A stretch of DNA of 11,648 bases from a virus. Its lineage: Duplodnaviria > Heunggongvirae > Uroviricota > Caudoviricetes. Location of the stretch: positions 1 to 11,648 of the IMG/VR virus record IMGVR_UViG_2671180963_000004. The stretch is one strand, 5' to 3'. This document shows positions 1 through 11,648 of this stretch, one piece after another (within the stretch, counting starts at the first letter, position 1; each line of letters begins with the position of its first letter). The translations under genes and the position numbers were made by a program. The notes under the pieces were generated by a model. The model saw only the letters and a program-made list of their open reading frames with translations. It had not been told where the DNA came from and searched no databases.

Positions 1-219
1 TCACATCCACATAATTTGCTGCCCTGACGGCAACGGGTGCGGCCTCACGGCGTGGACTTCTCCCGGCTTCACGATGTATCGCTGTACCGACTCATAAGTG
101 ATGAACGTGGCGCTGCAATTCACGTTCTGACACTGGTGATAACGCTCTTTTGTCGTGTCAGTGATATAGCGACTTGTACGCGCATGTGCGGCATGCTGGC
201 ATAAAGGACAATGAAACAT
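1..219 (-). CDS. ogr: Ogr-type late-gene transcription activator (72 aa zinc-finger protein)
   Basis: Translation from ATG at 217-219 gives MFHCPLCQHAAHARTSRYITDTTKERYHQCQNVNC..., with a C-x2-C-x22-C-x4-C zinc-binding pattern, and matches P2 Ogr as I recall it. SD-like GAGGTG lies 7 nt upstream. The ORF-track extension to 282 is probably not translated. Stop codon is at 1-3. Confidence 0.88.
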   Translation of the reverse strand: MFHCPLCQHAAHARTSRYITDTTKERYHQCQNVNCSATFITYESVQRYIVKPGEVHAVRPHPLPSGQQIMWM

Positions 220-253
220 CGCGAGCACCTCTTCCGGTTTTGTTGATGGTGCC

Positions 254-282
254 ATTTTAGTTAATTTATCCTTATAAAACAA
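254..282 (-). promoter_or_regulatory. Candidate sigma70 promoter for ogr (-35 TTGTTT at 282-277, 17-nt spacer, -10 TAAAAT at 259-254, read on minus strand)
   Basis: Hexamers read by eye in the AT-rich 80-bp spacer between the D remnant stop (301) and the ogr start (219). No other support. Confidence 0.3.
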
Positions 283-300
283 ACAGATAAAATAAAAACA

Positions 301-1179
301 TCACTCATCATCTTCTGTTTCGTACTCCACATCAGAAAGCCTGACCTCAAGCTCCAGGGACGTCGTGAAGCCGCTATTATTCAGAAAATGTGTCACCTTA
401 GTGATTGTCCAGTCCTGCTCGTCTATGACGCGCTTAAAGCCTGATACTTTGACCGGCGTTTCCGTGTAAATATCTGCCCGACCAGTAGCCAGACTGATGG
501 AGAACTCCGCAACGCCCCGTTGCAGCTTATCCCACTTCGCCTGAGCGGCGCGCATGGCCTGCGCTTTCGTGGCATATACCGTGGTCAGGGCAAAAACGTT
601 GTCAGCCTCACCTGCCATGTATTCACCTTCGCGCGCTTCCGGTACTTTTGGCGCTTTCTTCTGCGTGACCGGTTTCGCTTTCGGGTGCTCCAGTGCGCGC
701 AGGTGTTTCTCTTTCTTTTTGCGTTTCAGTTTTACCTTCTGCTTTTGTGGCTTCGGGTCTTTGGTGTGTAACCACTTTGCCGTTACGCCGGTATAGGCTC
801 CACGGTCAGCAATCGCAAAATGATGGCGGTCGCCGTCGCTGCGGGTTATGGTGACCTGCGGGATTTTTTTACCACTGGCCGTCACCCCCTGCCCCGCTTT
901 GAGAAACAACAATTTTCCCATTTTTACCGACACCTCACCGCCGTTGCGTTCAGCAAGACGGGTCAGGAATTTCGCATCGGACTCCTGCGACTGGTCGATG
1001 TGCGGGATTTTAATTCCGGCCAGTGACGGAGCGACACTGGCCTCCAGCCTGTTACGGGAGGCTATCGCCTCAACAATCGCACCGAGTGTGGTGTCATGCC
1101 AGGAGCCTTCCCGGCGGGAATTGAGCGTCCCGCGAAAATCTGCACTCCGGGCGCGGATGGTAATCCGGCCAGATGACCA
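301..1179 (-). pseudogene. D: Tail protein D (P2 gpD-like), 5'-truncated or frame-disrupted remnant
   Basis: Called ORF 301-933 begins at a GTG. Manual in-frame translation continues upstream as ...ITIRARSADFRGTLNSRREGSWHDTTLGAIVEAIASRNRLEASVAPSLAGIKIPHIDQSQESDAKFLTRLAERNGGEVSVKMGKLLFLKAGQG..., up to an in-frame TGA at 1180-1182. No plausible start codon with RBS; an N-terminal portion is missing. Confidence 0.7.
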
Positions 1180-1357
1180 TCAGCTCACGCTGGCTGAAAT
1201 TCTGGCGGTAGGCTTTCACCTCGGAAATGGTCTTACAGCCCCATGCGCTGATATAAAGGGAAATCAGTGTCGCCTTGCGTTCGGCGAGAATGGTTTCAAA
1301 GTCCAGCTCCTCGACCACATCCGGTGCGGGTAGCTGGTTCAGGTCGATAATCGGCAT
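1094..1357 (-). pseudogene. J: Baseplate protein J (P2 gpJ-like) N-terminal stub; only about the first 35 codons look J-like, remainder runs into D-derived DNA out of frame
   Basis: N-terminus MPIIDLNQLPAPDVVEELDFETILAERKATLISLY matches the P2 gpJ N-terminus as I recall it. The ORF is 87 codons, far shorter than a full baseplate J protein of roughly 300 aa. Sits 4 nt downstream of the W stop, as expected for the V-W-J order. Confidence 0.55.
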
Positions 1358-1361
1358 GGTT

Positions 1362-1709
1362 TCAACTCACAGGGATGGTTAACGAAAGTGGCTGGCCGGT
1401 GTCGTTGTGCTGGCCGGTTAACGTGACCGTCATTCGCCCGTCAAAACTGCGCGCCGTAGTGACGGATGACAGGGTGACGCGGGGTTCCCATTTCAGCACC
1501 GCCATGTAACAGGCGACCTTAATCTGCAACTCAAGCGCCTGGGTCTGCGGCTGGTCAATCATTGATGCCAGCAACGAGCCGTAATCACGACGCATCACCC
1601 GTGAGCCGACCGGTGTGCGCAGGATATCGCCGATACTCTGGCTGATATGCTCAAGGTCAGTGACAGTCAGGCCATCACTGCGATTCATTCCGAGATAACG
1701 TGCTGTCAT
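1362..1709 (-). CDS. W: Baseplate protein W (P2 gpW-like, 115 aa)
   Basis: Full-length 115-aa ORF, MTARYLGMNRSDGLTVTDLEHISQSIGDILRTPVGSRVMRRDYGSLLASMIDQPQT.... Its start overlaps the V stop by 4 nt (ATGA). Position V-W-J is syntenic with P2. Confidence 0.85.
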   Translation of the reverse strand: MTARYLGMNRSDGLTVTDLEHISQSIGDILRTPVGSRVMRRDYGSLLASMIDQPQTQALELQIKVACYMAVLKWEPRVTLSSVTTARSFDGRMTVTLTGQHNDTGQPLSLTIPVS

Positions 1710-2341
1710 AGAGGACTCCCGGTTGTGCCGCCGCTGTCTCCTGGGTGTTTGTGGGTATGCAGTACCTTACCGTTTGATGAGAGTTCACCGCCGGTGTGTT
1801 CAATGTTGCCGCGCATCGTCCCGCCCTTCTGCACTTCCAGCGTGCCGGTAATCAGCCTGTTGGTGCAGACCACCTCCGGTGTGTCCAGGGTGACGCGGGT
1901 TGATGCTTTCACCATGACCACCGGCACCGTGGCAGTAACAGAATCAGAAGCCGTCACGCTGACCGTTTTAATTCCGCTTACCGTGAGTGCACTGGTTTCG
2001 GGTTCATATTCAATCACCGCTCCGTCAGGGAAACGGATATGCAGGGCATCCGCCGACGCAGACGGCGCGGGGTTATCGCCGGAATAAATCCCCGGCAGAA
2101 CGAACGCCGTGTCGAGTTCACCGCCCACGGCCAGAATCAGCACCTGCTCCCCCACGGAAGGTGCCCACCATGTGCGCGAACGACCGGCACGATGGGTCAG
2201 CCACTGAAGCCAGTCAGTGCACATGCCGCCGGTCTGCACACGGCAGCGACCGGCGTTAAGGTCGGTTTCGACGACAAGGCCGGTGCGGATCATGTTGCGC
2301 AGTGCGCGCGCGAGTTCCTGAATATTTGCGAGAGTGTTCAT
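1706..2341 (-). CDS. V: Baseplate central spike protein V (P2 gpV-like, 211 aa)
   Basis: 211-aa ORF of the length expected for gpV. Lies between S and W in P2 order. Confidence 0.85.
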   Translation of the reverse strand: MNTLANIQELARALRNMIRTGLVVETDLNAGRCRVQTGGMCTDWLQWLTHRAGRSRTWWAPSVGEQVLILAVGGELDTAFVLPGIYSGDNPAPSASADALHIRFPDGAVIEYEPETSALTVSGIKTVSVTASDSVTATVPVVMVKASTRVTLDTPEVVCTNRLITGTLEVQKGGTMRGNIEHTGGELSSNGKVLHTHKHPGDSGGTTGSPL

Positions 2342-2407
2342 AACGGGAAGGATGCCGCCGGGTCATACCGGCGGCAATGTGACGATGAGGTGTCGGGAAT
2401 GGCACAA

Positions 2408-2860
2408 CTAACGGTCGAGGTGCGCCAGAATAATCTCTTCAATCATCTGCACATCCTCACCGGTAAAGCCGAGCAGGGGACGCGCCGGATAATCAATTTT
2501 CTTACCGTCTTTCCGGTTTTCTTCCGACAGACCGAACTGATGCACACTGGCGATTTTCGGTGACTTTCCGCCGTAAAATTCCATTGATGCCTGTTCCGGG
2601 CTGGCGCGGATATGCAAAAAACGACTGGTGATAAGTTTCGCAAACATTTTTCGCTTAACACGACCAGTCTTTTTTCTGGCGCTCTGCTGCTGGCGTGGCA
2701 CGTAGGGTGTGCCGTCCGGGGCTTTCTGTGCCATCACCCGACGCTGCTGACTCTGCCGCAGGCGCTTCGCCAGTTCGGCACTCAGTCGCCGACGCCCTGA
2801 CGGTGACAGCGATTCAATCAGTCCGGTCAGCCGGTCTTCAAAACGCTTAAACTCATTCAT
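2408..2860 (-). CDS. S: Tail completion protein S (P2 gpS-like, 150 aa)
   Basis: 150-aa ORF; start overlaps the upstream R-frame stop by 8 nt, as in a coupled late operon. Sits in S position upstream of V. Confidence 0.82.
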   Translation of the reverse strand: MNEFKRFEDRLTGLIESLSPSGRRRLSAELAKRLRQSQQRRVMAQKAPDGTPYVPRQQQSARKKTGRVKRKMFAKLITSRFLHIRASPEQASMEFYGGKSPKIASVHQFGLSEENRKDGKKIDYPARPLLGFTGEDVQMIEEIILAHLDR

Positions 2861-3059
2861 CCCACTTACTCACCAGTTCGCCATTGATATAAAGCTCCAT
2901 CGGGCGGGTGACCGGCTCCGGCGGCGGAGGTTCCGGGATATTCTTCACATGCAGCGCGCCGTCCACCTCACTGACCAGCGTGCGCTCGGTCAGCATCAGG
3001 CTGATGCTGATACAGGACAGGATTCGGGAAATAAACGGCTGGCTCGGCCAGGAGGTCAT
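2853..3059 (-). pseudogene. R: Tail completion protein R (P2 gpR-like), 3' fragment only (68 codons)
   Basis: 68-codon ORF ending 8 nt inside the S start, i.e. R position. Manual translation upstream of the ATG at 3057-3059 hits an in-frame stop at 3072-3074. Full-length gpR is roughly twice this size, so this is probably a 5'-truncated remnant. Confidence 0.55.
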
Positions 3060-3105
3060 CCGCTTTAAAAACTACTCACTGGACACTGACAACGGCTGAA
3101 CATCG

Positions 3106-3126
3106 CCGCCTGCGGGCGGCTTTTTT
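3106..3126 (+). terminator. Intrinsic terminator-like hairpin (GCCGCC-TGCG-GGCGGC followed by TTTTTT), plus-strand orientation
   Basis: Perfect 6-bp GC stem with 4-nt loop, followed directly by a T6 run. Oriented for rightward transcription, opposite to the flanking late genes. Consistent with a relic terminator from the far side of a deletion, possibly downstream of gene Q. Confidence 0.4.
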
Positions 3127-3268
3127 ACACCCCGTCATCACGCCCTCACACGCTCACCACCGCACAAAACACCCCGCAGACACACCAACGCCCCGGCGCA
3201 CAATCTAAACGCCATCAAGACGCGCTCAGACGCTGAAAAAATAAAATCAGCACCACCGCCAGCGCGCA

Positions 3269-3287
3269 GTGCTTTCCCCGCCTCGCC
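3269..3287 (-). other. cos: P2/P4-type cohesive end site (cos), 19 nt
   Basis: GTGCTTTCCCCGCCTCGCC at 3269-3287 is the exact reverse complement of the P2/P4 cohesive-end sequence GGCGAGGCGGGGAAAGCAC as I recall it. Orientation agrees with the reversed gene order. Confidence 0.8.
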
Positions 3288-3472
3288 CGCCCGCTTCATG
3301 GGGCATTTTTAATGCAGTTGCATGAACACTCCAAGAGCACACCATCGCTAGTGATAACTAACAATAAAAGCGACTTCTGACGCATGCAAATCCATGCACA
3401 TGATGGCATTTTTCATGATCTATGCGGTATGCTATCCGCTTCAATTTTTAACACTTGTTAAGGGAGCTAGAC

Positions 3473-4615
3473 ATGGACATTATTGATTTAAAATCTCAAC
3501 TAGAAAATGAAGATAATGCCAAGAAAAGAGCAGAGTTGCTTGCTCAGCTAGAGGTGATAAAGCAAAACGCTGAAGAGCAAATTCGTGCTGAGCAAAAGGA
3601 TGTGGATTTTGAGACCAAAGAATTTACCGTTGAGTTATTAGTTAATAAGTATCATAGCGGATTAGAGGATGATACTAACGAACTCTTTGTTCCTGATTAT
3701 CAAAGGGATTTTGTTTGGAGTGAAAAAAGACAATCAAGATTGATAGAGTCTTTGATTTTGGGTTTTCCTATACCATATATATTTACAGCAGATGTTCTCT
3801 CCGAAGATCCCGATTTAGATGGGCGAATTGAGATTGTTGATGGCTCACAGCGAGTTAGGACTATACACGCTTTTATCCAAAATGAATTAGTTTTACAAGA
3901 TCTGAAATCTTTAGACGCCCTTAATGGTTTCAAATTCCAAGATTTACCATTATCACGTCAACGTCGTTTCATGAGAATTCCTGTCCGCGTTATAGAATTG
4001 AGTTCTAAATGCAATGAAGAAACCCGTAGAGATCTTTTTGAACGTATTAACTCTGGCAGCGATATATTGAAAGATATGGAAGTCCGTAAAGGATCAGAAC
4101 TTGGTTCAACAAATTTATATACACAGGTTATTAAGCCATGCTCAACAATACCTAAATTTAAAGAATTAGCACCTTTATCTCAGACTAAAGAAAAACGAGA
4201 TGAACGGTTAGAATTTACATTAAGATTTTTTGCCTACTTAGATAAGTACAAGAACTTTGATCATTCCGTACGGGATTTTCTAAATGACTATATGTTAGAA
4301 AATCGAGATATAGACGAAACTAAACAAAACTCAATGAAACAAGAGTTTGCTAATGTTCTATCTTTTGTTGATAACTATTTCCCAGCAGGATTCAAGAAAA
4401 CTATTACTGCAAAATCTACACCTCGAGTTAGATTCGAATCTCTCGCTGTTGGCGCAGCACTTGCATTACGTGAAATCCCTGACCTTGTTCCCAAGAACTT
4501 GGATTGGCTAAGCTCAGAAGAATTCAAACGATTGACCACTTCAGACGGAGCTAATAGTCGCGTGAAGGTAATTGAACGAATTGAATATGTTCGGGATAAA
4601 TTATTAGAGGATTAA
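3473..4615 (+). CDS. DUF262 (ParB/GmrSD-N-terminal-like) domain protein, about 380 aa, no fused DUF1524/HNH nuclease domain
   Basis: Motifs DYQRDFVW (nt 3695-3718) and IVDGSQR (DGSQR at 3839-3853) are the hallmark QR..VW and DGQQR-type motifs of DUF262. Preferred start is ATG 3473, preceded by SD AGGGAG at 3461-3466; the ORF track uses TTG 3455. No (D/E)HxxP-type nuclease motif seen in the C-terminal half. AT-rich composition. Confidence 0.8.
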   Translation: MDIIDLKSQLENEDNAKKRAELLAQLEVIKQNAEEQIRAEQKDVDFETKEFTVELLVNKYHSGLEDDTNELFVPDYQRDFVWSEKRQSRLIESLILGFPIPYIFTADVLSEDPDLDGRIEIVDGSQRVRTIHAFIQNELVLQDLKSLDALNGFKFQDLPLSRQRRFMRIPVRVIELSSKCNEETRRDLFERINSGSDILKDMEVRKGSELGSTNLYTQVIKPCSTIPKFKELAPLSQTKEKRDERLEFTLRFFAYLDKYKNFDHSVRDFLNDYMLENRDIDETKQNSMKQEFANVLSFVDNYFPAGFKKTITAKSTPRVRFESLAVGAALALREIPDLVPKNLDWLSSEEFKRLTTSDGANSRVKVIERIEYVRDKLLED

Positions 4616-4616
4616 C

Positions 4617-5297
4617 ATGGATCGTTTTCGTGAGGATTTTGACGAAAGGTCAGGAGAGATCTTGGCCTATTTAGATCTTTTGAAATTTATTGAGTATGCC
4701 GGTGCAGAACTGATATCATCTGATGATAAAGAACATAAGTTCTCCATTACTGCTCAATCACGAAAAACTCTAAAGGGGGCAGTATATATTCTATTATATA
4801 ACCTCATTGAATCAACAATGAGAGAAGCTATCTGCCTTATTCATGAGACTATTTATGATAGAAACGTAGAATTTGACAAACTCAGGAAAAATATCAGGTC
4901 AGAAATATTAAAAAGATTAAAAAATGAATCTGTAAATATTGAAAGTTTAGTTAACCGTCTTACTAAAGGTATATCTTGCGGTATATCTTATGGCACTTTC
5001 AACAAAAAGAAAATATTCTCAGGAAATATTGATAGAGAGGAAATCAAAGAAAAATCGAAAATATATGGTTTTTCAACATATTCTGATTACACTCACACTA
5101 AACATGGTGAAAAATTAGCCACTGTCAAACAACATCGTAATGATTTATCTCATGGCAATGTATCATTTGCTGAGATTGGAAAAAATGTTTCATATCAGGA
5201 CTTAGAGAATATTTCATTAGAAGTAATCGCCTATCTTGATGCAATCGCGAATAATATAGAGCACTATATAAATAATAATGAATATTTAGAACAATAG
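4617..5297 (+). CDS. HEPN-like protein with Rx4H motif (putative RNase/nuclease effector), 226 aa
   Basis: ATG at 4617 is 1 nt after the upstream TAA (4613-4615), with SD-like GAGG at 4607-4610, indicating translational coupling. C-terminal region has KQHRNDLSHG, i.e. R174-x4-H179 (cgt 5136-5138, cat 5151-5153), the HEPN signature. Largely helical-looking, K/E-rich sequence. Pairing with a DUF262 protein resembles the MAE_28990/MAE_18760-type HEPN family naming as I recall it. Confidence 0.7.
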   Translation: MDRFREDFDERSGEILAYLDLLKFIEYAGAELISSDDKEHKFSITAQSRKTLKGAVYILLYNLIESTMREAICLIHETIYDRNVEFDKLRKNIRSEILKRLKNESVNIESLVNRLTKGISCGISYGTFNKKKIFSGNIDREEIKEKSKIYGFSTYSDYTHTKHGEKLATVKQHRNDLSHGNVSFAEIGKNVSYQDLENISLEVIAYLDAIANNIEHYINNNEYLEQ

Positions 5298-5303
5298 TAA
5301 TAA

Positions 5304-5320
5304 GGCCTGCAAAGCAGGCC
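5304..5320. terminator. Bidirectional terminator-like hairpin (GGCCTGC-AAA-GCAGGCC) between convergent genes
   Basis: 7-bp perfect stem with 3-nt loop in the 29-bp gap between the HEPN stop (5297) and the methyltransferase stop (5327). Flanked by T-rich sequence on plus (ATTTTAT) and A-rich on the other side. Confidence 0.5.
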
Positions 5321-5326
5321 ATTTTA

Positions 5327-6352
5327 TCATTCTAAATGGTTCTTGATTGATTGCCCAATTGCTTTTCCTAGTTCCACAGGAACAGCATTACCTATCATTT
5401 TCCCAATACTTCTTATAACAAACTTGTCTTTGTCTTCTACAAAGATATAATCCATCGGAAAAGTTTGCAATAAAGCAGCCTCTCTAAGAGAAATCGCTCT
5501 ATGCTGTTCTGGATGTCCAAAACGTCCATTTCCGAAACCATAACAAAGAGTTGTAATTGTTGGACTTGGCTTATCCCAAGACATGCGCCCATATACACTA
5601 GCATATCCTTTACCGCTAGATTTCATATGACAAGCAGCAATCAGCTCCTTCGGCCAGTCCTTCCATGTACCACCAGGAACAGAGTGTATAATTCTTTTTT
5701 TATTAATCGGATTTAATTTACTGGCTCTATGTAATATATCATTTGGATCTGTTTGGCCATCTTCTAACGGAGGAAGATTTCCTATTGCATCTCTAACTGT
5801 TTTCAAAATAACATCGTCACGTTTTACTAACTCAATCGCCCCCAATTTTGAAGCCAACAATACATGACGGGAACGGTTTTGTGGGATTCCATATTCGACA
5901 CAATCAACCTTCGACGCCCAAACATAATAGCCCAACTTTAACAATGAATTATAAAAATCATTATAAACTTTATGTTTAGTTACATCAGGAACGTTCTCCA
6001 TTGTTACGATTTCTGGAGATACTTCGCGAATTAAACGTTCGAACTCATAAAGAAGAGGCCATTTTTTATCATCAGCCTTATCTTTTCCTTGAGTATATTT
6101 TGAAAAAGGTTGGCAAGGTGCGCATCCTGCCAATACTTTTACAGACGCATCACCATAAAGCCTCAGCAGTTCCTCTTTTGTTACTTTAGCGATATCTTGC
6201 TCAATAAACTTAGATTTATTGTTTCTTTCATAGGGAAACCGACATTCCCCCTCAAGGTCTATGCCTGCAACGACATCAAGCCCCGCAAGCTGTAAACCAT
6301 GAGTTAATCCGCCAGCACCACAAAAAAGGTCTATCACCTTTACAGTCATCAT
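5327..6352 (-). CDS. DNA (cytosine-5)-methyltransferase, Dcm/M.HhaI-like, 341 aa
   Basis: Canonical C5-MTase motifs in order: motif I DLFCGAGG (AdoMet binding), motif IV GCAPCQPFS (catalytic PCQ, about 6110-6118), motif VI ENV (about 5990-5998), motif VIII QNRSRHVLLAS, and a C-terminal GNAVPV. SD-like GGAG upstream of the ATG at 6352. Confidence 0.9.
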   Translation of the reverse strand: MMTVKVIDLFCGAGGLTHGLQLAGLDVVAGIDLEGECRFPYERNNKSKFIEQDIAKVTKEELLRLYGDASVKVLAGCAPCQPFSKYTQGKDKADDKKWPLLYEFERLIREVSPEIVTMENVPDVTKHKVYNDFYNSLLKLGYYVWASKVDCVEYGIPQNRSRHVLLASKLGAIELVKRDDVILKTVRDAIGNLPPLEDGQTDPNDILHRASKLNPINKKRIIHSVPGGTWKDWPKELIAACHMKSSGKGYASVYGRMSWDKPSPTITTLCYGFGNGRFGHPEQHRAISLREAALLQTFPMDYIFVEDKDKFVIRSIGKMIGNAVPVELGKAIGQSIKNHLE

Positions 6353-6435
6353 TCACTCCAAATCTATACGATGCTCAGTATACATCCCTTTCTACAAAAT
6401 CTCGAGGCCTAACTTATAAACTCCTATTGATTGAG

Positions 6436-8535
6436 TTAACGCTTCACTGAGTTTGACTCTAATACTGTTGAGAATCCCGGCCACTCATCAGCGACCTGAT
6501 AAGTAAAATGTTTCCCGTCATAATTTACGGTCGCCCCACGCGCCAGCGCCTCAAGCTCCCATCGCTGCGGCCTGATACCGTTCTGAGCGAGGTCAACGCG
6601 GATACGGGTAATTTGCATTCGTTCCGACCGGGTCAGTCTGGCCGATGGTGCCATTTCATACTGTTTTAACGGGCTTCCGTTTCTCTGCTGACGATTTGGT
6701 GTTCTCAGCCCGTGTTTTAATGCGCCCCTGAGCGCCCTCACGACCTCCGGGTCATTCCATTCGATAACACCGTCATCAACCAGATTAAGCACTGCTGCGG
6801 CGTGCTCAGAAGGCGTGGGAGCCGGTAACGAAGTATCACCGCTGGTGAGCTTTCCACAGTTATTGACAGGACTCCGAGGCGCGGCGATGCCGCTTTTTAA
6901 AGTCAAAGGCTCAACGACCGGCACTTTCGGAACAATGCGCCAGTCCGTCGTTCTGGTGATATGAATATGACGCGCGCCGAGATGCGGCGCGTAAATGCCG
7001 ACCACTCTCTCGACTTCTTCCTCGTACTCGTTAACTTCATCCGACGGACTACGGGCGACCCTGACAGTCTGACAATCGCGCGGGACATTTGCCCCACCCT
7101 GCGCGCTGATATACAGCGCAAAATCACCACTGTCTGCGGCGGCGCGTGCAGCCTCGACGCGCTCGTCAAACTCATCAGCAATGCTGACGCCGCGAGGCAA
7201 TTTGCGTAGTTCACGGTAAGCCCCCATTGTCGGCAGGCCAACCGTTTTAAATTGCGGAATGCGCCACGTTGACGCCCATGCGGTAACAGCCGCGGCAGTA
7301 TCTTTCAGCGGTCTGCCGGTATCGTTATCGAGCTGCCCATCCAGTGCATAGCCGTCGATATTTTTTGAGATGTATTTCGCGATATACCCCGCAGCACCGC
7401 CCCGATTAAGATGTTTTGCCTGAAAACGGTTTCGCGCGGCTCCTCTTTCGTCGCCATCCTCTTTGAGCGCATAGCGACGCATGATTTCGATAATCTGGTT
7501 ACGCTGGCGTGGATTACAAAAAAACATCATATGCCAGTGCGGCGTTCCGTCGTGGTGTGGCTCGACGACTCGCAAACCGTAGACCTGTAAATCATTATCC
7601 TTGAATGCCGTGCGCATCAGGCTCCAGATACGGCAGAGATAACGCTGCGCATCCTTTGGATTAAATGCCTCATCGTTCCAGCCGTGATTTAGCTGGACGG
7701 TTTTACTTTCGCCTTTTCCAACCTGACGTGTCGGGTGATACTTTGACGGCGCGGTCAGCGTGATAAACATCCCCACATCACCCTCTGCGGCGGCGTAACG
7801 CTCAATACCGGCAATGGTGTTCATCAGCTCCATCCGGCGAATTTCAGGATTAGAAATACTGCCCATCACCTTACTGATAAGGTCGATGCGCTCGCCTGTT
7901 TCCCTGTTTTCGAGATCACACGATTTAAGAAATTCCAGATTTGCCTGGCGGCGTGCACGCACATCACGAATGGCATGTTTACTGGCATAAGGAGAACGGT
8001 CTTTATTGACCTCCCCGACAGCAATCAGTAACGCCTCATGCCAGCGCATACGCTGGCCTTTAAGCTGATGAGTCCACCACTCATCGTTAAACAGACGGGC
8101 AATGGCAGAATATGCCTGCCTCGTGGTCATCTGTCCTTTACGGTATTTTTTCCAGTAGAGAGGGGAAATATTGAAAGCACGTGCAGCGCCAGCAACATGA
8201 CCATAGAGGTGAGCCTGCGCCTCATCCGTAAACAGCGATTCTTTTTCGCCATGCGCATCCACCCATGCATCGCAGAGTTCCTCATACATCATGAAAAGCT
8301 GCGATGAGATACGGGCGGCAAACTTTTTCAGCTCCTTGTCATTCATTCCAGGCAGGCGCGCATAATGGTCACGCTCTGCCAGAAACAGCAACGACGCGTC
8401 GGTGTTCATTTCATGGCGCTGATTCACGCGCTCAATGCGCGGCCATAAGCGACGCTGAAAAGTGGATGTGAGGAAATAAAACCCGTGCAGCAGGTATTGG
8501 CGCATCACACTCTTCGCAAACCAGCGAAGAAACAC
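6436..8535 (-). CDS. A: Replication initiation protein A (P2 gpA-like rolling-circle HUH endonuclease)
   Basis: HUH motif in PHHDGTPHWHMMFF and tyrosine pair in GYIAKYISKN, typical of P2 A-family initiators. Called start 8533-8535 is a GTG with an in-frame stop 9 nt upstream (8545-8547); an in-frame ATG at 8503-8505 (MRQYLLHGFYF...) is an alternative start. Coding region overlaps the upstream zinc-finger ORF. Confidence 0.85.
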   Translation of the reverse strand: MFLRWFAKSVMRQYLLHGFYFLTSTFQRRLWPRIERVNQRHEMNTDASLLFLAERDHYARLPGMNDKELKKFAARISSQLFMMYEELCDAWVDAHGEKESLFTDEAQAHLYGHVAGAARAFNISPLYWKKYRKGQMTTRQAYSAIARLFNDEWWTHQLKGQRMRWHEALLIAVGEVNKDRSPYASKHAIRDVRARRQANLEFLKSCDLENRETGERIDLISKVMGSISNPEIRRMELMNTIAGIERYAAAEGDVGMFITLTAPSKYHPTRQVGKGESKTVQLNHGWNDEAFNPKDAQRYLCRIWSLMRTAFKDNDLQVYGLRVVEPHHDGTPHWHMMFFCNPRQRNQIIEIMRRYALKEDGDERGAARNRFQAKHLNRGGAAGYIAKYISKNIDGYALDGQLDNDTGRPLKDTAAAVTAWASTWRIPQFKTVGLPTMGAYRELRKLPRGVSIADEFDERVEAARAAADSGDFALYISAQGGANVPRDCQTVRVARSPSDEVNEYEEEVERVVGIYAPHLGARHIHITRTTDWRIVPKVPVVEPLTLKSGIAAPRSPVNNCGKLTSGDTSLPAPTPSEHAAAVLNLVDDGVIEWNDPEVVRALRGALKHGLRTPNRQQRNGSPLKQYEMAPSARLTRSERMQITRIRVDLAQNGIRPQRWELEALARGATVNYDGKHFTYQVADEWPGFSTVLESNSVKR

Positions 8536-8620
8536 CGCAATGTTTTACCCTTGCCGCGTTAATCTGGCGCTCCAGTAATTCAGCCTGTTGTTCCTGAATA
8601 AAATCTACGTTGTCCGGCAT
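8432..8620 (-). CDS. Small TraR/DksA-like zinc-finger protein (possibly degenerate), 62 aa
   Basis: Contains CEECDAPIPAAR, resembling the C-x2-C-G-x-P-I-P-x-x-RR core of TraR-family phage zinc fingers. The expected second CxxC pair is absent in all three frames; the tail is VLFPHIHFSASLMAAH. Overlaps the A start region by about 70-100 nt. Confidence 0.45.
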   Translation of the reverse strand: MPDNVDFIQEQQAELLERQINAARVKHCGVSSLVCEECDAPIPAARVLFPHIHFSASLMAAH

Positions 8621-8622
8621 TA

Positions 8623-8925
8623 TCAGCTCCTTTTATCGTTAAGTTTCCTGGATACATCAGCGCAATAACTGGCGAGTTCTGTCGTTAATTTTGTCAGTTC
8701 ATCCACTGAGGAAATTTGCTTGTGGAACACAGCGCGTTTAACAAGTAAATTGACCACATCAGACAGGAGGTTTAATTCATTCTGATAAATCGCGATAACA
8801 GATTCAGTTATGTCGCGTTTTTCTTTATCAAGACAAAGTTGAATAAGAGACAAATCACCATTTTCCATAACGGCGATTTTTAAGGCGTTATTCAGTAATA
8901 CAACTGAATGAGAACAGGACATCAA
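8623..8925 (-). CDS. Hypothetical small early protein (100 aa), in the B-to-A interval
   Basis: ORF in the same orientation as the early operon; start overlaps the upstream ORF stop by 4 nt (8922-8925). No recognisable motif. Confidence 0.5.
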
Positions 8926-9146
8926 AGCACCTCCCCGCGAGACAATCCGATATTGTGAAATTTTTCCGACTCCTGACTGAGCAGCTCGACTATCTCCACG
9001 CGGGATAACTCCGCCTTTGTGATATGGCGAATCATGGCGTCAAGATGAGAAGAAAAGCGCGTCGCAGCGTCGGCCTGTGCTTCGGTTCTGGCCTGTTGCA
9101 GCAGTAATGCGTATTTACCGCACTGATTTTCAGAAACTGTATGCAT
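8922..9146 (-). CDS. Hypothetical small early protein (74 aa), downstream of B
   Basis: ORF in early-operon orientation, coupled by overlap to the next ORF. No recognisable motif. Confidence 0.5.
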
Positions 9147-9209
9147 GACTTTCTCCAGGCAAAAAGAAGCCCCGCACGATTAAGTGCGTTAAAAACTCTG
9201 GTTAATTAT

Positions 9210-9710
9210 TTAATGCAAATATTGCTCTGGTTTTACCGACGTCAGAATTGTCGGTGCATACTCAAACAGACTGAATAGTTCACGTAATGCACGGAATAAA
9301 GCATCACGCCAGTAACATGACTCTTCATTAATTCGCCAGTATGGCTGATTGAATTCTTTTTCAGTCAATCCGGCATGCATAAATAAAGTACGACGCTGAC
9401 TGACTGTTAAAAAACTAATATATGCATACTCACTTGCGCCAACCTGACGGCGTTTTGAGAATGCCCCACGCAATTCATCAATTGCACAAACCAGCCGTTC
9501 ACGTTCGACGTCGTTCATTTCTTCAAAACGCATCGTTGCGTGACGTTGTTTTAACTGCGCATGAAAGCAAACTGTTAGCCGTTCGCGCTCCATCATCTGA
9601 TTATAATAATCACATGTATCCTGCCAGCGAGGGACGGCAAGATGCTTACCAATTATCCGGCGCATAGCTGCTGGCTGTTTTTCGACGAGATTGAGCGTCA
9701 TCACTGTCAT
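9210..9710 (-). CDS. B: Replication protein B (P2 gpB-like, 166 aa, helicase-loader-type early protein)
   Basis: 166-aa ORF of the length and position (downstream of cox and a small ORF, upstream of A) expected for P2 B. Confidence 0.75.
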   Translation of the reverse strand: MTVMTLNLVEKQPAAMRRIIGKHLAVPRWQDTCDYYNQMMERERLTVCFHAQLKQRHATMRFEEMNDVERERLVCAIDELRGAFSKRRQVGASEYAYISFLTVSQRRTLFMHAGLTEKEFNQPYWRINEESCYWRDALFRALRELFSLFEYAPTILTSVKPEQYLH

Positions 9711-9877
9711 TTCCAGACCCTCCGGCTTTTCAGAAAGGTCAGAGCCTTTTTTAACGGACTCTGTTTTTTGGTGCGGATAATGATTCCCTTACGCCCCTTA
9801 CCGTGGGTGATGGTGAAGTCAATCGCCCTGGGGCTTTCGTTACGCAGTAACTGAGCAATACAACGCGGTTCACTCAT
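9707..9877 (-). CDS. Small early ORF between cox and B (orf78-like position), about 56 aa
   Basis: ORF track starts at ATG 9902-9904, which would overlap the cox 3' end by 25 nt. In-frame ATG at 9875-9877 lies 2 nt after the cox stop and is preferred. Stop overlaps the B start (ATGA-type). Confidence 0.45.
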   Translation of the reverse strand: MSEPRCIAQLLRNESPRAIDFTITHGKGRKGIIIRTKKQSPLKKALTFLKSRRVWK

Positions 9878-9879
9878 AA

Positions 9880-10152
9880 TCACAACCCCATCCACAAAAG
9901 CCATGCATCACGCTGTTCAACTGGTCGGTTATAAAACGCCTCTCGTACAGCGCGATTAAACTCTGGAATGAAAACCCACTTCTCACCGACACGAGCGTTC
10001 GGCTTACTTGGATCACGAAGCTCAATAACTGGCAATTTATTCTCTTTTACCATCTTGACTACAGCCGTTTCTGGCTTACCAAGTAACTCTGCAAACTTAA
10101 CCGTATGTACCGCATCAATCGGGTACTGAATCACATAGTCATTGACTTCCAT
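9880..10152 (-). CDS. cox: Cox (P2-type excisionase/early-promoter regulator), 90 aa
   Basis: 90-aa ORF, first gene of the minus-strand early operon and divergent from C. Region KLPVIELRDPSKPNARVGEKWVFIPEFN...RDAWLLWMGL resembles P2 Cox as I recall it. Confidence 0.78.
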   Translation of the reverse strand: MEVNDYVIQYPIDAVHTVKFAELLGKPETAVVKMVKENKLPVIELRDPSKPNARVGEKWVFIPEFNRAVREAFYNRPVEQRDAWLLWMGL

Positions 10153-10197
10153 TGATTAGCCCTTTTTGCTTTCGTGTTACCCTTATTAGATCCAGCC

Positions 10198-10227
10198 CCT
10201 TCTAGGTCGCCCCTGTCCTTTCTAGGG
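10198..10227. repeat. Direct repeats CCTTCTAGG / CCTTTCTAGG (10198-10206 and 10218-10227): second candidate operator or Cox-box pair
   Basis: Near-identical 9-10-bp direct repeats spaced about 21 bp apart (two helical turns) in the cox-C intergenic region. Confidence 0.3.
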
Positions 10228-10248
10228 ACTGGCTAACACACTCAAAAG

Positions 10249-10292
10249 GTCACCAATACACAACCTTTTGACGGGAATATAAGTCACCAATA
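10249..10292. repeat. Direct repeats GTCACCAATA (10249-10258 and 10283-10292) flanking the candidate Pe -10: candidate repressor (C) or Cox operator half-sites
   Basis: Exact 10-bp direct repeat, 34 bp apart, one copy inside the Pe spacer and one just downstream of the predicted start site. Confidence 0.35.
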
Positions 10293-10304
10293 GGTTACTG
10301 TCAA
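10276..10304 (-). promoter_or_regulatory. Candidate early promoter Pe (minus strand): -35 TTGACA (10304-10299), 17-nt spacer, -10 TATATT (10281-10276)
   Basis: Near-consensus hexamers with 17-bp spacing, read on the minus strand. Lies on the C-proximal side of the cox-C intergenic region, consistent with the face-to-face Pe/Pc arrangement described for P2. Confidence 0.5.
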
Positions 10305-10598
10305 ATGCAGACATTCGAAAAACTGAAAGCGATTAGGAAAGCAGAAGGCTTAACACAGGCGAAATTCAGCGAAATTAGCGGGATAGCTCTAGGAACAGTC
10401 AAAAATTACGAAAGTGGGCATAAAGACCCTGGTCTCAGCATCGTTATGCGAGTCACAAATACGCCTTTATTTAAAAAATATACGCTCTGGTTAATGACTG
10501 GTGATACGTCACCACAAGCTGGTCAGATCGCGCCGGCTCTCGCACACATTGGGCAAAAACCAACAGAATCAGACCGCTCCGAAAAACAGACTGGTTAA
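10305..10598 (+). CDS. C: Immunity repressor C (P2 C-like, 97 aa, HTH)
   Basis: N-terminal helix-turn-helix region LTQAKFSEISGIALGTVKNYESG. C-terminal KYTLWLMTGDTSPQAGQIAPALAHIGQ closely resembles P2 C as I recall it. Divergent from cox and upstream of int. Confidence 0.82.
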   Translation: MQTFEKLKAIRKAEGLTQAKFSEISGIALGTVKNYESGHKDPGLSIVMRVTNTPLFKKYTLWLMTGDTSPQAGQIAPALAHIGQKPTESDRSEKQTG

Positions 10599-10667
10599 CA
10601 CTCTATAAACATTACATTTTCACCATTTGTTACCAAGATGGTGAATACAGCGTCAGAGGGCTTTCTT

Positions 10668-11648
10668 ATGTCAATTAAGAAGCTCGATGATGGACGCTAT
10701 GAAGTGGACATTAGACCTCGCGGTCGCGACGGAAAACGCATCCGCAGGAAATTTGAAAGAAAAGCTGAGGCTGTAGCATTTGAGCGATACACAATCGCCT
10801 ACGCCAGCCAGAAAGAATGGGCAGGTCAGCGAGCAGATCGCAGAACTTTGAGTGAGTTGCTGGACATCTGGTGGAAATATCACGGGCAAAACCACGAGCA
10901 TGGAACAAAAGAGTTTAATCATCTGCTCAAAACCATCAGCGGCATAGGTGATATACCAGTGAGCCGGATGAGCAAAAGAGCTTTGATGGATTATCGTTCC
11001 ATGCGACTACGAAATGGTATCAGTGCCGCAACGATAAACCGTGACATGTACCGATTATCCGGCATGTTCACAAAATTAATTCAATTGGATGAATTTTCCG
11101 GGCAACACCCAATTCACGGACTGCCGCCACTGGCGGAGGCCAACCCTGAAATGACGTTCCTGGAAAAAGCAGAAATCGAAAAACTGTTAAATGTTTTGGA
11201 TGGTGATGACTTACTTGTCGCACTTTTATGTCTGAGCACTGGAGGAAGATGGACGGAAGTTGCCACGCTAAAACCAGCACAGATTACAAATTGCAGGGTT
11301 ACCTTCCTGAAAACCAAAAACGGTAAAAAGCGAACCGTGCCGATTTCTGAGGAACTGGAGAAAAAAGTTAAAGAGGAGGCCAGCGCTAAATTATTCAAAG
11401 TTGATTATGAGAAGTTTTGCGGGATTTTACGCAGAGTGAAGCCAGATATACCACCCAATCAGGCAACCCACATCCTGCGGCATACATTCGCAAGCCATTT
11501 CATGATGAATGGGGGCAATATAATCGCACTGCAACAGATTCTGGGACATGCGAGCATTCAGCAGACGATGGCCTATGCGCACCTTGCGCCTGACTACCTG
11601 CAAAATGCCGTCGCGCTGAATCCTCTAAAAGGCGGAGTGACGTTATAA
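10668..11648 (+). CDS. int: Tyrosine integrase (P2 Int-like), about 326 aa
   Basis: MSIKKLDDGRYEVDIRP... matches the P2 Int N-terminus as I recall it. C-terminal catalytic region HILRHTFASHFMMNGGNIIALQQILGHASIQQTMAYAHL carries the H-x-x-R box and Tyr of tyrosine recombinases. Preferred start is ATG 10668 with SD AGAGGG at 10655-10660; the ORF track starts at 10638. Stop is at 11646-11648, the window edge. Confidence 0.9.
   Translation: MSIKKLDDGRYEVDIRPRGRDGKRIRRKFERKAEAVAFERYTIAYASQKEWAGQRADRRTLSELLDIWWKYHGQNHEHGTKEFNHLLKTISGIGDIPVSRMSKRALMDYRSMRLRNGISAATINRDMYRLSGMFTKLIQLDEFSGQHPIHGLPPLAEANPEMTFLEKAEIEKLLNVLDGDDLLVALLCLSTGGRWTEVATLKPAQITNCRVTFLKTKNGKKRTVPISEELEKKVKEEASAKLFKVDYEKFCGILRRVKPDIPPNQATHILRHTFASHFMMNGGNIIALQQILGHASIQQTMAYAHLAPDYLQNAVALNPLKGGVTL

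Follow-up and report, generated by a model that had tools for sequence, protein, structure and literature searches.

A decayed P2-like prophage carries what we propose, on balance, to be a mobile anti-phage cassette of three genes with a restriction-modification-like organization. The prophage lies in an 11,648-nucleotide stretch of viral DNA (positions 1 to 11,648 of IMG/VR record IMGVR_UViG_2671180963_000004; hereafter, the window), and the cassette is prophage cargo that extends from approximately position 3250 to 6420 and encodes a DUF262 protein, a HEPN protein, and a C5 DNA cytosine methyltransferase. The locus is a genuine and probably functional defense cassette. An earlier, sequence-only reading had described the first two genes as a translationally coupled pair and a candidate split-nuclease defense effector; its observations are confirmed here, and its interpretation is partly supported. 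We favor the restriction-modification-like reading because of the domain identities of the proteins, the obligate pairing of the DUF262 and HEPN genes, the linkage of the methylase, the precedents of PD-T4-2 and PD-lambda-5, the sensor role of DUF262 in GmrSD, BrxU, and SspE, and the location of the locus in a P2 hotspot. The three genes are as follows.

3473 to 4615, plus strand: gene 1, a 380-amino-acid NsnA-like ParB-DUF262 protein with a helical C-terminal domain (ParBDB type), predicted to be a nucleoside triphosphate (NTP)-binding DNA sensor.
4617 to 5297, plus strand: gene 2, a 226-amino-acid HEPN protein of the MAE_28990 family, translationally coupled to gene 1 and predicted to be an RNase effector (R174, H179).
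5327 to 6352, minus strand: a C5 DNA cytosine methyltransferase of 340/341 amino acids, convergent with the pair and the third cassette component.

Both open reading frames (ORFs) of the pair are present as the sequence-only reading had placed them, and RefSeq annotates the same two coding sequences in identical prophages, where the product of gene 1 (an identical 380-amino-acid protein) is named "DUF262 domain-containing protein" and that of gene 2 "MAE_28990/MAE_18760 family HEPN-like nuclease." Gene 1 has a ribosome-binding site (AAGGGAG, 3461 to 3467), begins with the ATG at 3473, and ends with the TAA at 4613 to 4615. The ATG of gene 2 lies at 4617, one base past that stop and with its own GAGGA upstream, and its TAG occupies 5295 to 5297.

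Profile searches for DUF262, DUF1524, and HEPN, which the earlier reading had suggested, matched the DUF262 and HEPN families and not DUF1524. In gene 1, the Pfam match to GmrSD_N/DUF262 (4.7e-26) is confined to residues 63 to 206, a region that contains the motifs QRDFVW (77 to 82), DGSQR (123 to 127), and FERIN (189 to 193). There was no Pfam match to DUF1524 or HNH in this protein at an E value of ≤1 and no His-Me match by structure, in agreement with the claim that it lacks the fused nuclease domain. Gene 2 matches HEPN_MAE_28990 (PF18737) over its full length (2.8e-29) and HEPN_RiboL-PSP (PF18735) at 8.5e-9. Its RNDLSH motif (residues 174 to 179) is the Rx4H motif, with R174 and H179, on which the earlier reading had based the HEPN assignment, and the protein was positive for a four-helix HEPN fold combined with an Rx4-6H catalytic motif. 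Its closest structural neighbors are the HEPN toxins of toxin-antitoxin systems. Judged by these scores, the homology signals of both genes are strongly significant and not those of chance ORFs.

The PADLOC models, also put forward earlier as a check, were informative for gene 1 and silent for gene 2. Gene 1 is matched by NsnA over its full length (2e-54; 23-376/385) and, with a lower score, by PD-T4-2_A (5e-35; residues 73 to 371 against profile positions 55 to 355 of 363), while gene 2 and the homologues that were tested match no PADLOC model at an E value of ≤1, PD-T4-2_B included. Because the HEPN subunit has no model, PADLOC v2 would miss the DUF262-HEPN-methylase family, and current defense-finder models would leave this locus uncalled. 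A PADLOC restriction endonuclease model, REase_II PDLC03418 (372 positions), weakly matches the DUF262 region, at 3e-5 in gene 1 and down to 1e-7 in homologues; this model was built from a REBASE Type II restriction enzyme, which hints that a DUF262-type protein has already been catalogued as a restriction enzyme. NCBIfam holds no family for gene 1 or gene 2. A sequence search of the PDB recovered relatives of gene 1 in the DUF262 motif region of BrxU-like proteins only and none of the HEPN protein. From these matches, the architecture of gene 1 is assigned as ParB-DUF262 plus ParBDB, of the full-length NsnA type, an architecture that Li et al. (2025) described as a DNA sensor.

With NsnA as the best PADLOC match of gene 1, the locus could be viewed as a degenerate Menshen system, in which an orphan NsnA has outlived the loss of NsnB and NsnC. 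We consider this extremely unlikely. Positions 3000 to 6500 contain no ATPase ORF that could represent the NsnB ABC ATPase, the downstream gene being HEPN, and NsnC, an inPIN plus nuclease effector, is absent from the window and from homologous loci. No homologous locus has NsnB either; gene 1 and its relatives are invariably partnered with HEPN. Neighboring genes are the criterion by which Li et al. (2025) tell Menshen and PD-T4-2-type DUF262 operons apart.

The methyltransferase retains all of its catalytic motifs (FCGAGG, PCQPFS, ENVPD, QNRSR, and GNAVP) and matches Pfam DNA_methylase (4.4e-58), TIGR00675 dcm (3.8e-37), and M.HaeIII in the PDB (1.4e-21). With its motifs intact, the enzyme looks active. 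Similarity to PDB entries gives no lead on its specificity, as M.HaeIII and DNMT1 match at the level of the catalytic core only.

Evidence that this enzyme belongs with the pair comes from comparative genomics. A genome scan with one genome per species yielded 236 relatives of the HEPN protein, of which the best 80 were analyzed; methylase counts refer to the 76 informative loci among these 80 and to 38 informative loci among 42 viral loci in IMG/VR. A DUF262 gene lies immediately upstream of HEPN in 79 of the 80 genomic loci, the 80th having no upstream DNA, and in 41 of the 42 viral loci, where the exception (L135) has only 49 nucleotides before the HEPN match. The junction is always tight, with gaps of 1 to 3 nucleotides or overlaps of 4 to 8. 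This arrangement shows an obligate, translationally coupled pairing. An orthologous methylase (50 to 56% identity, full length) adjoins the pair in 36 of the 76 informative genomic loci, and all three genes occur in every one of the 38 informative viral contigs. Compared with the window enzyme, the viral methylases are 48 to 100% identical at 37 loci and 29% identical at one (L134). The viral loci display two gene orders, with the methylase either convergent downstream or codirectional upstream of DUF262. Since the methylase still adjoins the pair in the second order, the linkage has been kept. Six IMG/VR loci (L134, L136 to L139, and L141) and one from Pyrinomonadaceae (L074) have the order methylase-DUF262-HEPN on one strand.

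The three genes recur in Klebsiella lambdoid prophages, in Salmonella P2-like prophages (between portal and gpA), in Vibrio jasicida (beside a resolvase), in the cyanobacterium Brasilonema, in two Microcystis aeruginosa loci (L032 and L083), in Moraxella phage Mcat28, and in Peduovirus P24B2. Compared with cyanobacterial and marine members, the window copy is 36 to 44% identical in HEPN and 44 to 63% identical in DUF262. In a neighbor-joining tree of DUF262 plus HEPN, the methylase-less loci fall mainly into one derived cyanobacterial clade, with two sporadic losses besides, and one methylase-less locus retains a methylase fragment. The tree, together with the viral and genomic counts, therefore indicates an ancestral methylase that accompanies the module whenever it is mobile but can be lost. 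On these comparative grounds, we take the functional unit to be three genes, with the C5 methyltransferase an ancestral and co-inherited component; the two-gene unit of the sequence-only reading was too narrow.

Among the methylase-less loci, neighbor clustering returned clade-specific syntenic host genes only and no alternative methylase or replacement third gene. The methylase-less cyanobacterial pairs (within L029 to L095) occupy fixed chromosomal positions beside recurring host ORFs, each common to 8 to 12 loci; one of these neighbors encodes a protein of ~895 amino acids that is ClpB-like by eye only. Such settings suggest that the pair has been inherited vertically or domesticated, its catalytic motifs still intact. 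Among complete E. coli genomes, the cassette is present in 9 of 5,426; prophages of Klebsiella and Salmonella carry it far more often, and the Klebsiella DUF262 variant alone is represented by 487 contig-collection blocks.

A variant cassette occupies the same P2 hotspot in P24B2 (L096; LR595873.1, 2021 to 3041), with identities to the window of 72 to 77% for the methylase, 45% for DUF262, and 30% for HEPN. As far as these alignments go, it shows a sensor/effector pair that diverges modularly while the methylase is conserved. Across the P24B2-type subfamily, the corresponding ranges are 57 to 77%, 40 to 49%, and 28 to 36%, rates of divergence that would fit an effector under arms-race pressure.

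How might the three products work together? In the reading we favor, the methyltransferase would mark host and prophage DNA as self. The DUF262 protein, with its helical domain, would act as an NTP-dependent reader of the modification state of incoming DNA, a role proposed because DUF262 serves in this way in GmrSD, BrxU, and SspE and because of the match to the NsnA model. The same protein would control the co-translated HEPN protein, the sole recognizable nuclease of the cassette and most likely an RNase, which would either shut the infected cell down or degrade phage transcripts; this step is suggested by the HEPN family and the conserved Rx4H motif. Taken together, the three steps would amount to restriction-modification logic in which DUF262 is the sensor and HEPN the effector. 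The genetically linked, putatively cognate methyltransferase that such logic calls for is present, with intact motifs and co-inheritance in two gene orders, and both the NTP-binding motifs of the DUF262 protein and the Rx4H motif of HEPN are conserved. Characterized HEPN enzymes are RNases; the label "split nuclease," by which a HEPN protein would take the place of the GmrSD DNase, is an inference of the earlier reading.

A more specific version of this scheme, which we offer tentatively and do not regard as probable, is epigenetic restriction with an RNase killing arm. A ParB-like NTP-dependent clamp would read the 5-methylcytosine state set by the linked methylase, and unmethylated foreign DNA would license HEPN, which might act locally on nascent phage transcripts or globally as abortive infection. 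If true, self/non-self discrimination by DNA modification would be coupled directly to RNA targeting in a minimal three-gene module.

The same genes could instead form a classical restriction-modification system. Cleavage of unmethylated DNA would then fall to the ParB-fold DUF262 protein, and HEPN would be an RNase kept as a second line and unleashed once restriction has failed. Anantharaman et al. (2013) class ParB as an endoDNase and propose a model of this kind, and the PDLC03418 match points in the same direction, but that match is weak and confined to the motif region. Moreover, in the DUF262 proteins studied by experiment (GmrSD, BrxU, and SspE), the DUF262 domain is the NTPase/sensor, and the DUF1524 domain that does the cutting is missing here. 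We therefore think this model doubtful, and distinctly so.

Several observations weigh against the restriction-modification-like reading. In 40 of the 76 informative genomic loci, mostly from the one cyanobacterial clade, no methylase is adjacent, and the DGxQR and RNDLAHG motifs are intact. In P24B2, the methylase frame is broken (two high-scoring segment pairs in different frames; an annotated protein of 234 amino acids), which may reflect decay of the methylase or a sequencing error. The pair is thus not necessarily lethal without a linked methylase, unless an unlinked one compensates. PD-T4-2 needs no methylase for its action on T-even phages, which carry modified cytosines, so a modification-dependent (type IV-like) sensor fits as well. 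Finally, the literature that we searched contains no experiment on the DUF262-HEPN-methylase subfamily.

These points bear most directly on an alternative in which the pair alone is a modification-dependent, PD-T4-2-type system. DUF262 would sense modified phage DNA (hydroxymethylcytosine [hmC] or glucosyl-hmC) and release HEPN, and the methyltransferase would be a separate passenger that, for example, shields prophage DNA from host restriction. Such a system would account for the defense that PD-T4-2, which has no methylase, provides against T4, T2, and T6, for the reading of modified DNA by DUF262 in GmrSD, BrxU, and SspE, and for the roughly half of genomic homologues that lack the methylase and keep their catalytic motifs. 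It sits poorly with a methylase that is inherited together with the pair in different phyla and in two gene orders and that is present in all 38 informative viral contigs, with a cassette that travels among unrelated prophage backbones as a single unit whose noncoding ends are shared, and with the three-gene operon that Anantharaman et al. (2013) give as the typical context of the family. Overall, we consider a two-gene type IV-like system unlikely.

The shared noncoding ends just mentioned delimit the cassette. The remaining features of the locus are as follows.

3250 to 3472, plus strand: conserved 5' noncoding leader of gene 1, which marks the left cassette boundary (~3250) and holds the ribosome-binding site and repeats.
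5304 to 5320, both strands: GC-rich hairpin flanked by T runs, between the convergent genes; bidirectional intrinsic terminator, from a terminator scan of both strands.
6353 to 6420, minus strand: conserved leader/promoter region of the methyltransferase, which marks the right cassette boundary (~6420).

In comparison with the Klebsiella lambdoid and Salmonella P2-like copies, conservation begins ~220 nucleotides before the ATG of gene 1, with none further left. On the right, the alignment with these copies holds to ...AAAATCTCGAGG and diverges beyond it. Because P2-like and lambdoid copies share these noncoding ends, the mobile unit is a cassette of ~3.2 kb, from ~3250 to 6420. The leader contains two copies of GGCATTTTT(A/C)ATG (3302 and 3405) and several CATGCA/TGCATG elements; its segment from 3300 to 3425 also holds a tandem CATGCA(A/C)AT (3383 and 3393) and the inverted pair ATGCAGTTGCATG / CATGCAAATCCAT. 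Several of these repeats are kept in the Klebsiella and Salmonella copies, and they may be candidate operator sites. When the region was scanned for promoter consensus sequences, matches were no more numerous than in shuffled sequence, and none made a convincing promoter for gene 1.

The window is a P2-like prophage with ogr at its left end and the integrase at its right end, and the DUF262-HEPN pair lies in cargo between a portal remnant and gpA. The cargo (~3400 to 6200) is AT rich, with a GC content of 0.30 to 0.40 versus 0.52 to 0.62 in the flanks. The portal/gpA site of P2 is a known defense hotspot, and many systems from the screen of Vassallo et al. (2022) were located in P2 hotspots. 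The sequence-only description of AT-rich cargo in an anti-phage hotspot is borne out by both observations.

An intact counterpart is the P2-like prophage of E. coli CFSAN064036 (L098), in which the island likewise has the portal gene on one side and the gene for the gpA replication endonuclease on the other. Positions 3011 to 8489 of the window are 100% identical to this prophage and positions 8484 to 11648 are 99.97% identical, but 8.5 kb (lysis, head, terminase, and most of portal) is missing from the window. At this first junction, 2789 to 3012 matches the gpS region, and the sequence from 3011 onward corresponds to the last ~90 nucleotides of the portal gene; as the gpS-region match runs straight into the end of portal, the ~8.5 kb of lysis, head, and terminase genes has been deleted. 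A second deletion of 593 nucleotides (at 8484 to 8489) has truncated gpA at its 5' end and taken out a DUF5405 gene along with part of a TraR-like gene, and D and J are fragmentary too (301 to 1360). The prophage in the window is a decayed deletion derivative, and the defense cassette inside it is intact.

The survival of an intact cassette when more than 9 kb of the rest of the prophage is gone could also be expected of a selfish, toxin-antitoxin-like addiction module, whose HEPN toxin is restrained by DUF262 and/or methylation and whose main effect is to stabilize the cassette and the prophage. Restriction-modification modules are known to act as addiction modules, and the structural resemblance of gene 2 to HEPN toxins fits the same picture. 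Against it, the closest validated relative has a clear defense phenotype in its native strain, the locus occupies a hotspot dedicated to defense cargo, and loss of the methylase is tolerated in many lineages. Addiction as the main function seems to us improbable, well short of a serious contender.

Other cargo was seen in and around this site. In a Salmonella P2-like prophage (L008, 3793 to 5550), a gene for a 585-amino-acid reverse transcriptase (RVT_1) lies between the portal gene and the cassette, so that one hotspot holds two cargo systems. In another (L007, 7933 to 8973), an insertion sequence element with an rve transposase is inserted between HEPN and the methylase. Related P2-like prophages of E. 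coli 3908 and PEC301 (hits H71 and H72) carry other methylase-bearing cargo at the same position, annotated as [quoted passage not shown] and [quoted passage not shown] In the window itself, a 53-amino-acid ORF (3138 to 3299, minus strand) within the GC-rich spacer that separates the cassette from the portal remnant would encode a low-complexity Ala/Gly/Arg-rich product that has no RefSeq annotation, and it is probably not a gene.

DUF262 proteins without DUF1524, such as those of PD-T4-2, Menshen, and Dazbog, are validated defense components that lack a known mechanism. The cassette represents a compact form native to E. coli, supplemented by a cognate methylase and located in a prophage hotspot. 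As such, it offers a tractable handle on whether a ParB-fold NTPase reads DNA methylation, how a HEPN nuclease is switched on, and whether restriction-modification logic, with methylation as the self/non-self signal, can be wired to an RNase effector.

Among known systems, those built on DUF262 are the natural point of comparison. The single-chain, modification-dependent DNases of the GmrSD type have no cognate methylase; in GmrSD, BrxU, and SspE, DUF262 is the NTPase/sensor that reads modified DNA, and DUF1524 cleaves. Gene 1 shares the N-terminal DUF262 NTPase domain of GmrSD and BrxU and differs from them in missing the DUF1524 His-Me/HNH domain. Membership in this group was rejected since neither Pfam nor structure revealed DUF1524, and the earlier description of a GmrSD-like logic with a separate effector was correct. 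Menshen (NsnABC; Millman et al. 2022; Li et al. 2025) shares the NsnA architecture and its proposed sensor role, whereas in the present cassette a HEPN effector is coupled directly to the sensor and a methylase is linked. Menshen was rejected despite NsnA being the best model for gene 1. With NsnB and NsnC absent, the cassette is neither Menshen nor strict PD-T4-2.

Low-identity phage matches (H26 and H37, from Vibrio phage L9-1 and an unannotated Salmonella phage, Adana) were set aside as different systems and not PD-T4-2. In Vibrio phage L9-1 (Peduoviridae; L099, 410 to 4718), a cytosine methyltransferase gene beside the integrase is followed by a gene for a 646-amino-acid protein and then by further unannotated genes. 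The 646-amino-acid protein has a DUF262-like region (31% identity to gene 1 over residues 74 to 274), and the locus looks like another DUF262-plus-methylase arrangement of a different type.

PD-lambda-5, a validated system of ECOR7 with a broad phage range, was listed by Vassallo et al. (2022) as "ParB/HEPN, methyltransferase." As in the cassette, a ParB-fold domain and a HEPN-like region occur together with a DNA methyltransferase. In PD-lambda-5, however, ParB and HEPN are fused in a protein of ~500 amino acids, whose HEPN part HHpred supports only weakly, and methylation falls to an N6-adenine enzyme of the D12 class (Dam-like); in the cassette, ParB/DUF262 and HEPN are separate proteins and the methylase is C5, which places it outside that system. 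No PD-lambda-5 model was among the PADLOC matches of gene 1 or gene 2. The literature searched holds no published mechanism for PD-T4-2, PD-lambda-5, or MAE_28990 proteins, and in it MAE_28990 is mentioned by the analysis of Anantharaman et al. (2013) alone.

The closest relative is PD-T4-2, described by Vassallo et al. (2022) as "DUF262, HEPN": two ORFs over 1,540 bp of E. coli ECOR65, with no methylase (RCO39066.1 and an unannotated second ORF of QOYX01000002:338334-339873). PD-T4-2 protects against T4 both natively and in K-12, its deletion sensitizes ECOR65, and HHpred assigned PD-T4-2B to HEPN_RiboL-PSP (97.8%) and HEPN_MAE_28990 (96.9%) (Vassallo et al. 2022). The "DUF262, HEPN" architecture thus belongs to a system validated against T4, which the sequence-only reading had not recognized in the pair. 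The clear match to a characterized system that this reading had named as speaking against its claim exists by half: the PD-T4-2 A-subunit model matches and the B-subunit model does not. Both systems come from E. coli, and both pair a DUF262 protein without DUF1524 (~363 amino acids in PD-T4-2) with a small HEPN protein, encoded next, of the RiboL-PSP/MAE_28990 clade. They differ in that gene 2 shares PF18735 and PF18737 and still escapes the PD-T4-2_B model, that it is ~60 amino acids longer than PD-T4-2B (HHpred span to residue ~163), that gene 1 scores higher on NsnA, and that a C5 methylase is an ancestral third component. Strict PD-T4-2 membership was therefore rejected, the B model failing for gene 2 and the tested homologues alike, and PD-T4-2 was kept as the closest relative, a relationship judged by PADLOC models and published HHpred assignments and not by sequence alignment. 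By domain content, the cassette is architecturally equivalent to the validated PD-T4-2 and appears as its methylase-bearing sister.

The exact three-gene content was anticipated by Anantharaman et al. (2013; Biol Direct 8:15), who gave a ParB-HEPN-methylase operon as the typical context of the MAE_28990 family. These authors classed ParB as an endoDNase domain of restriction-modification systems and proposed that the HEPN RNases linked to such systems act as a second line of defense, by analogy with EcoprrI-PrrC ("multi-pronged"). Their description is computational only, without phenotype, mechanism, or phage context, and calls the ParB protein a nuclease. The Rx4-6H HEPN protein, the ParB-fold gene, and the methylase of that operon are all found here, in a copy that differs in being enterobacterial prophage cargo. 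The cassette is, accordingly, a further member of an architecture already described in silico in 2013 and akin to PD-T4-2.

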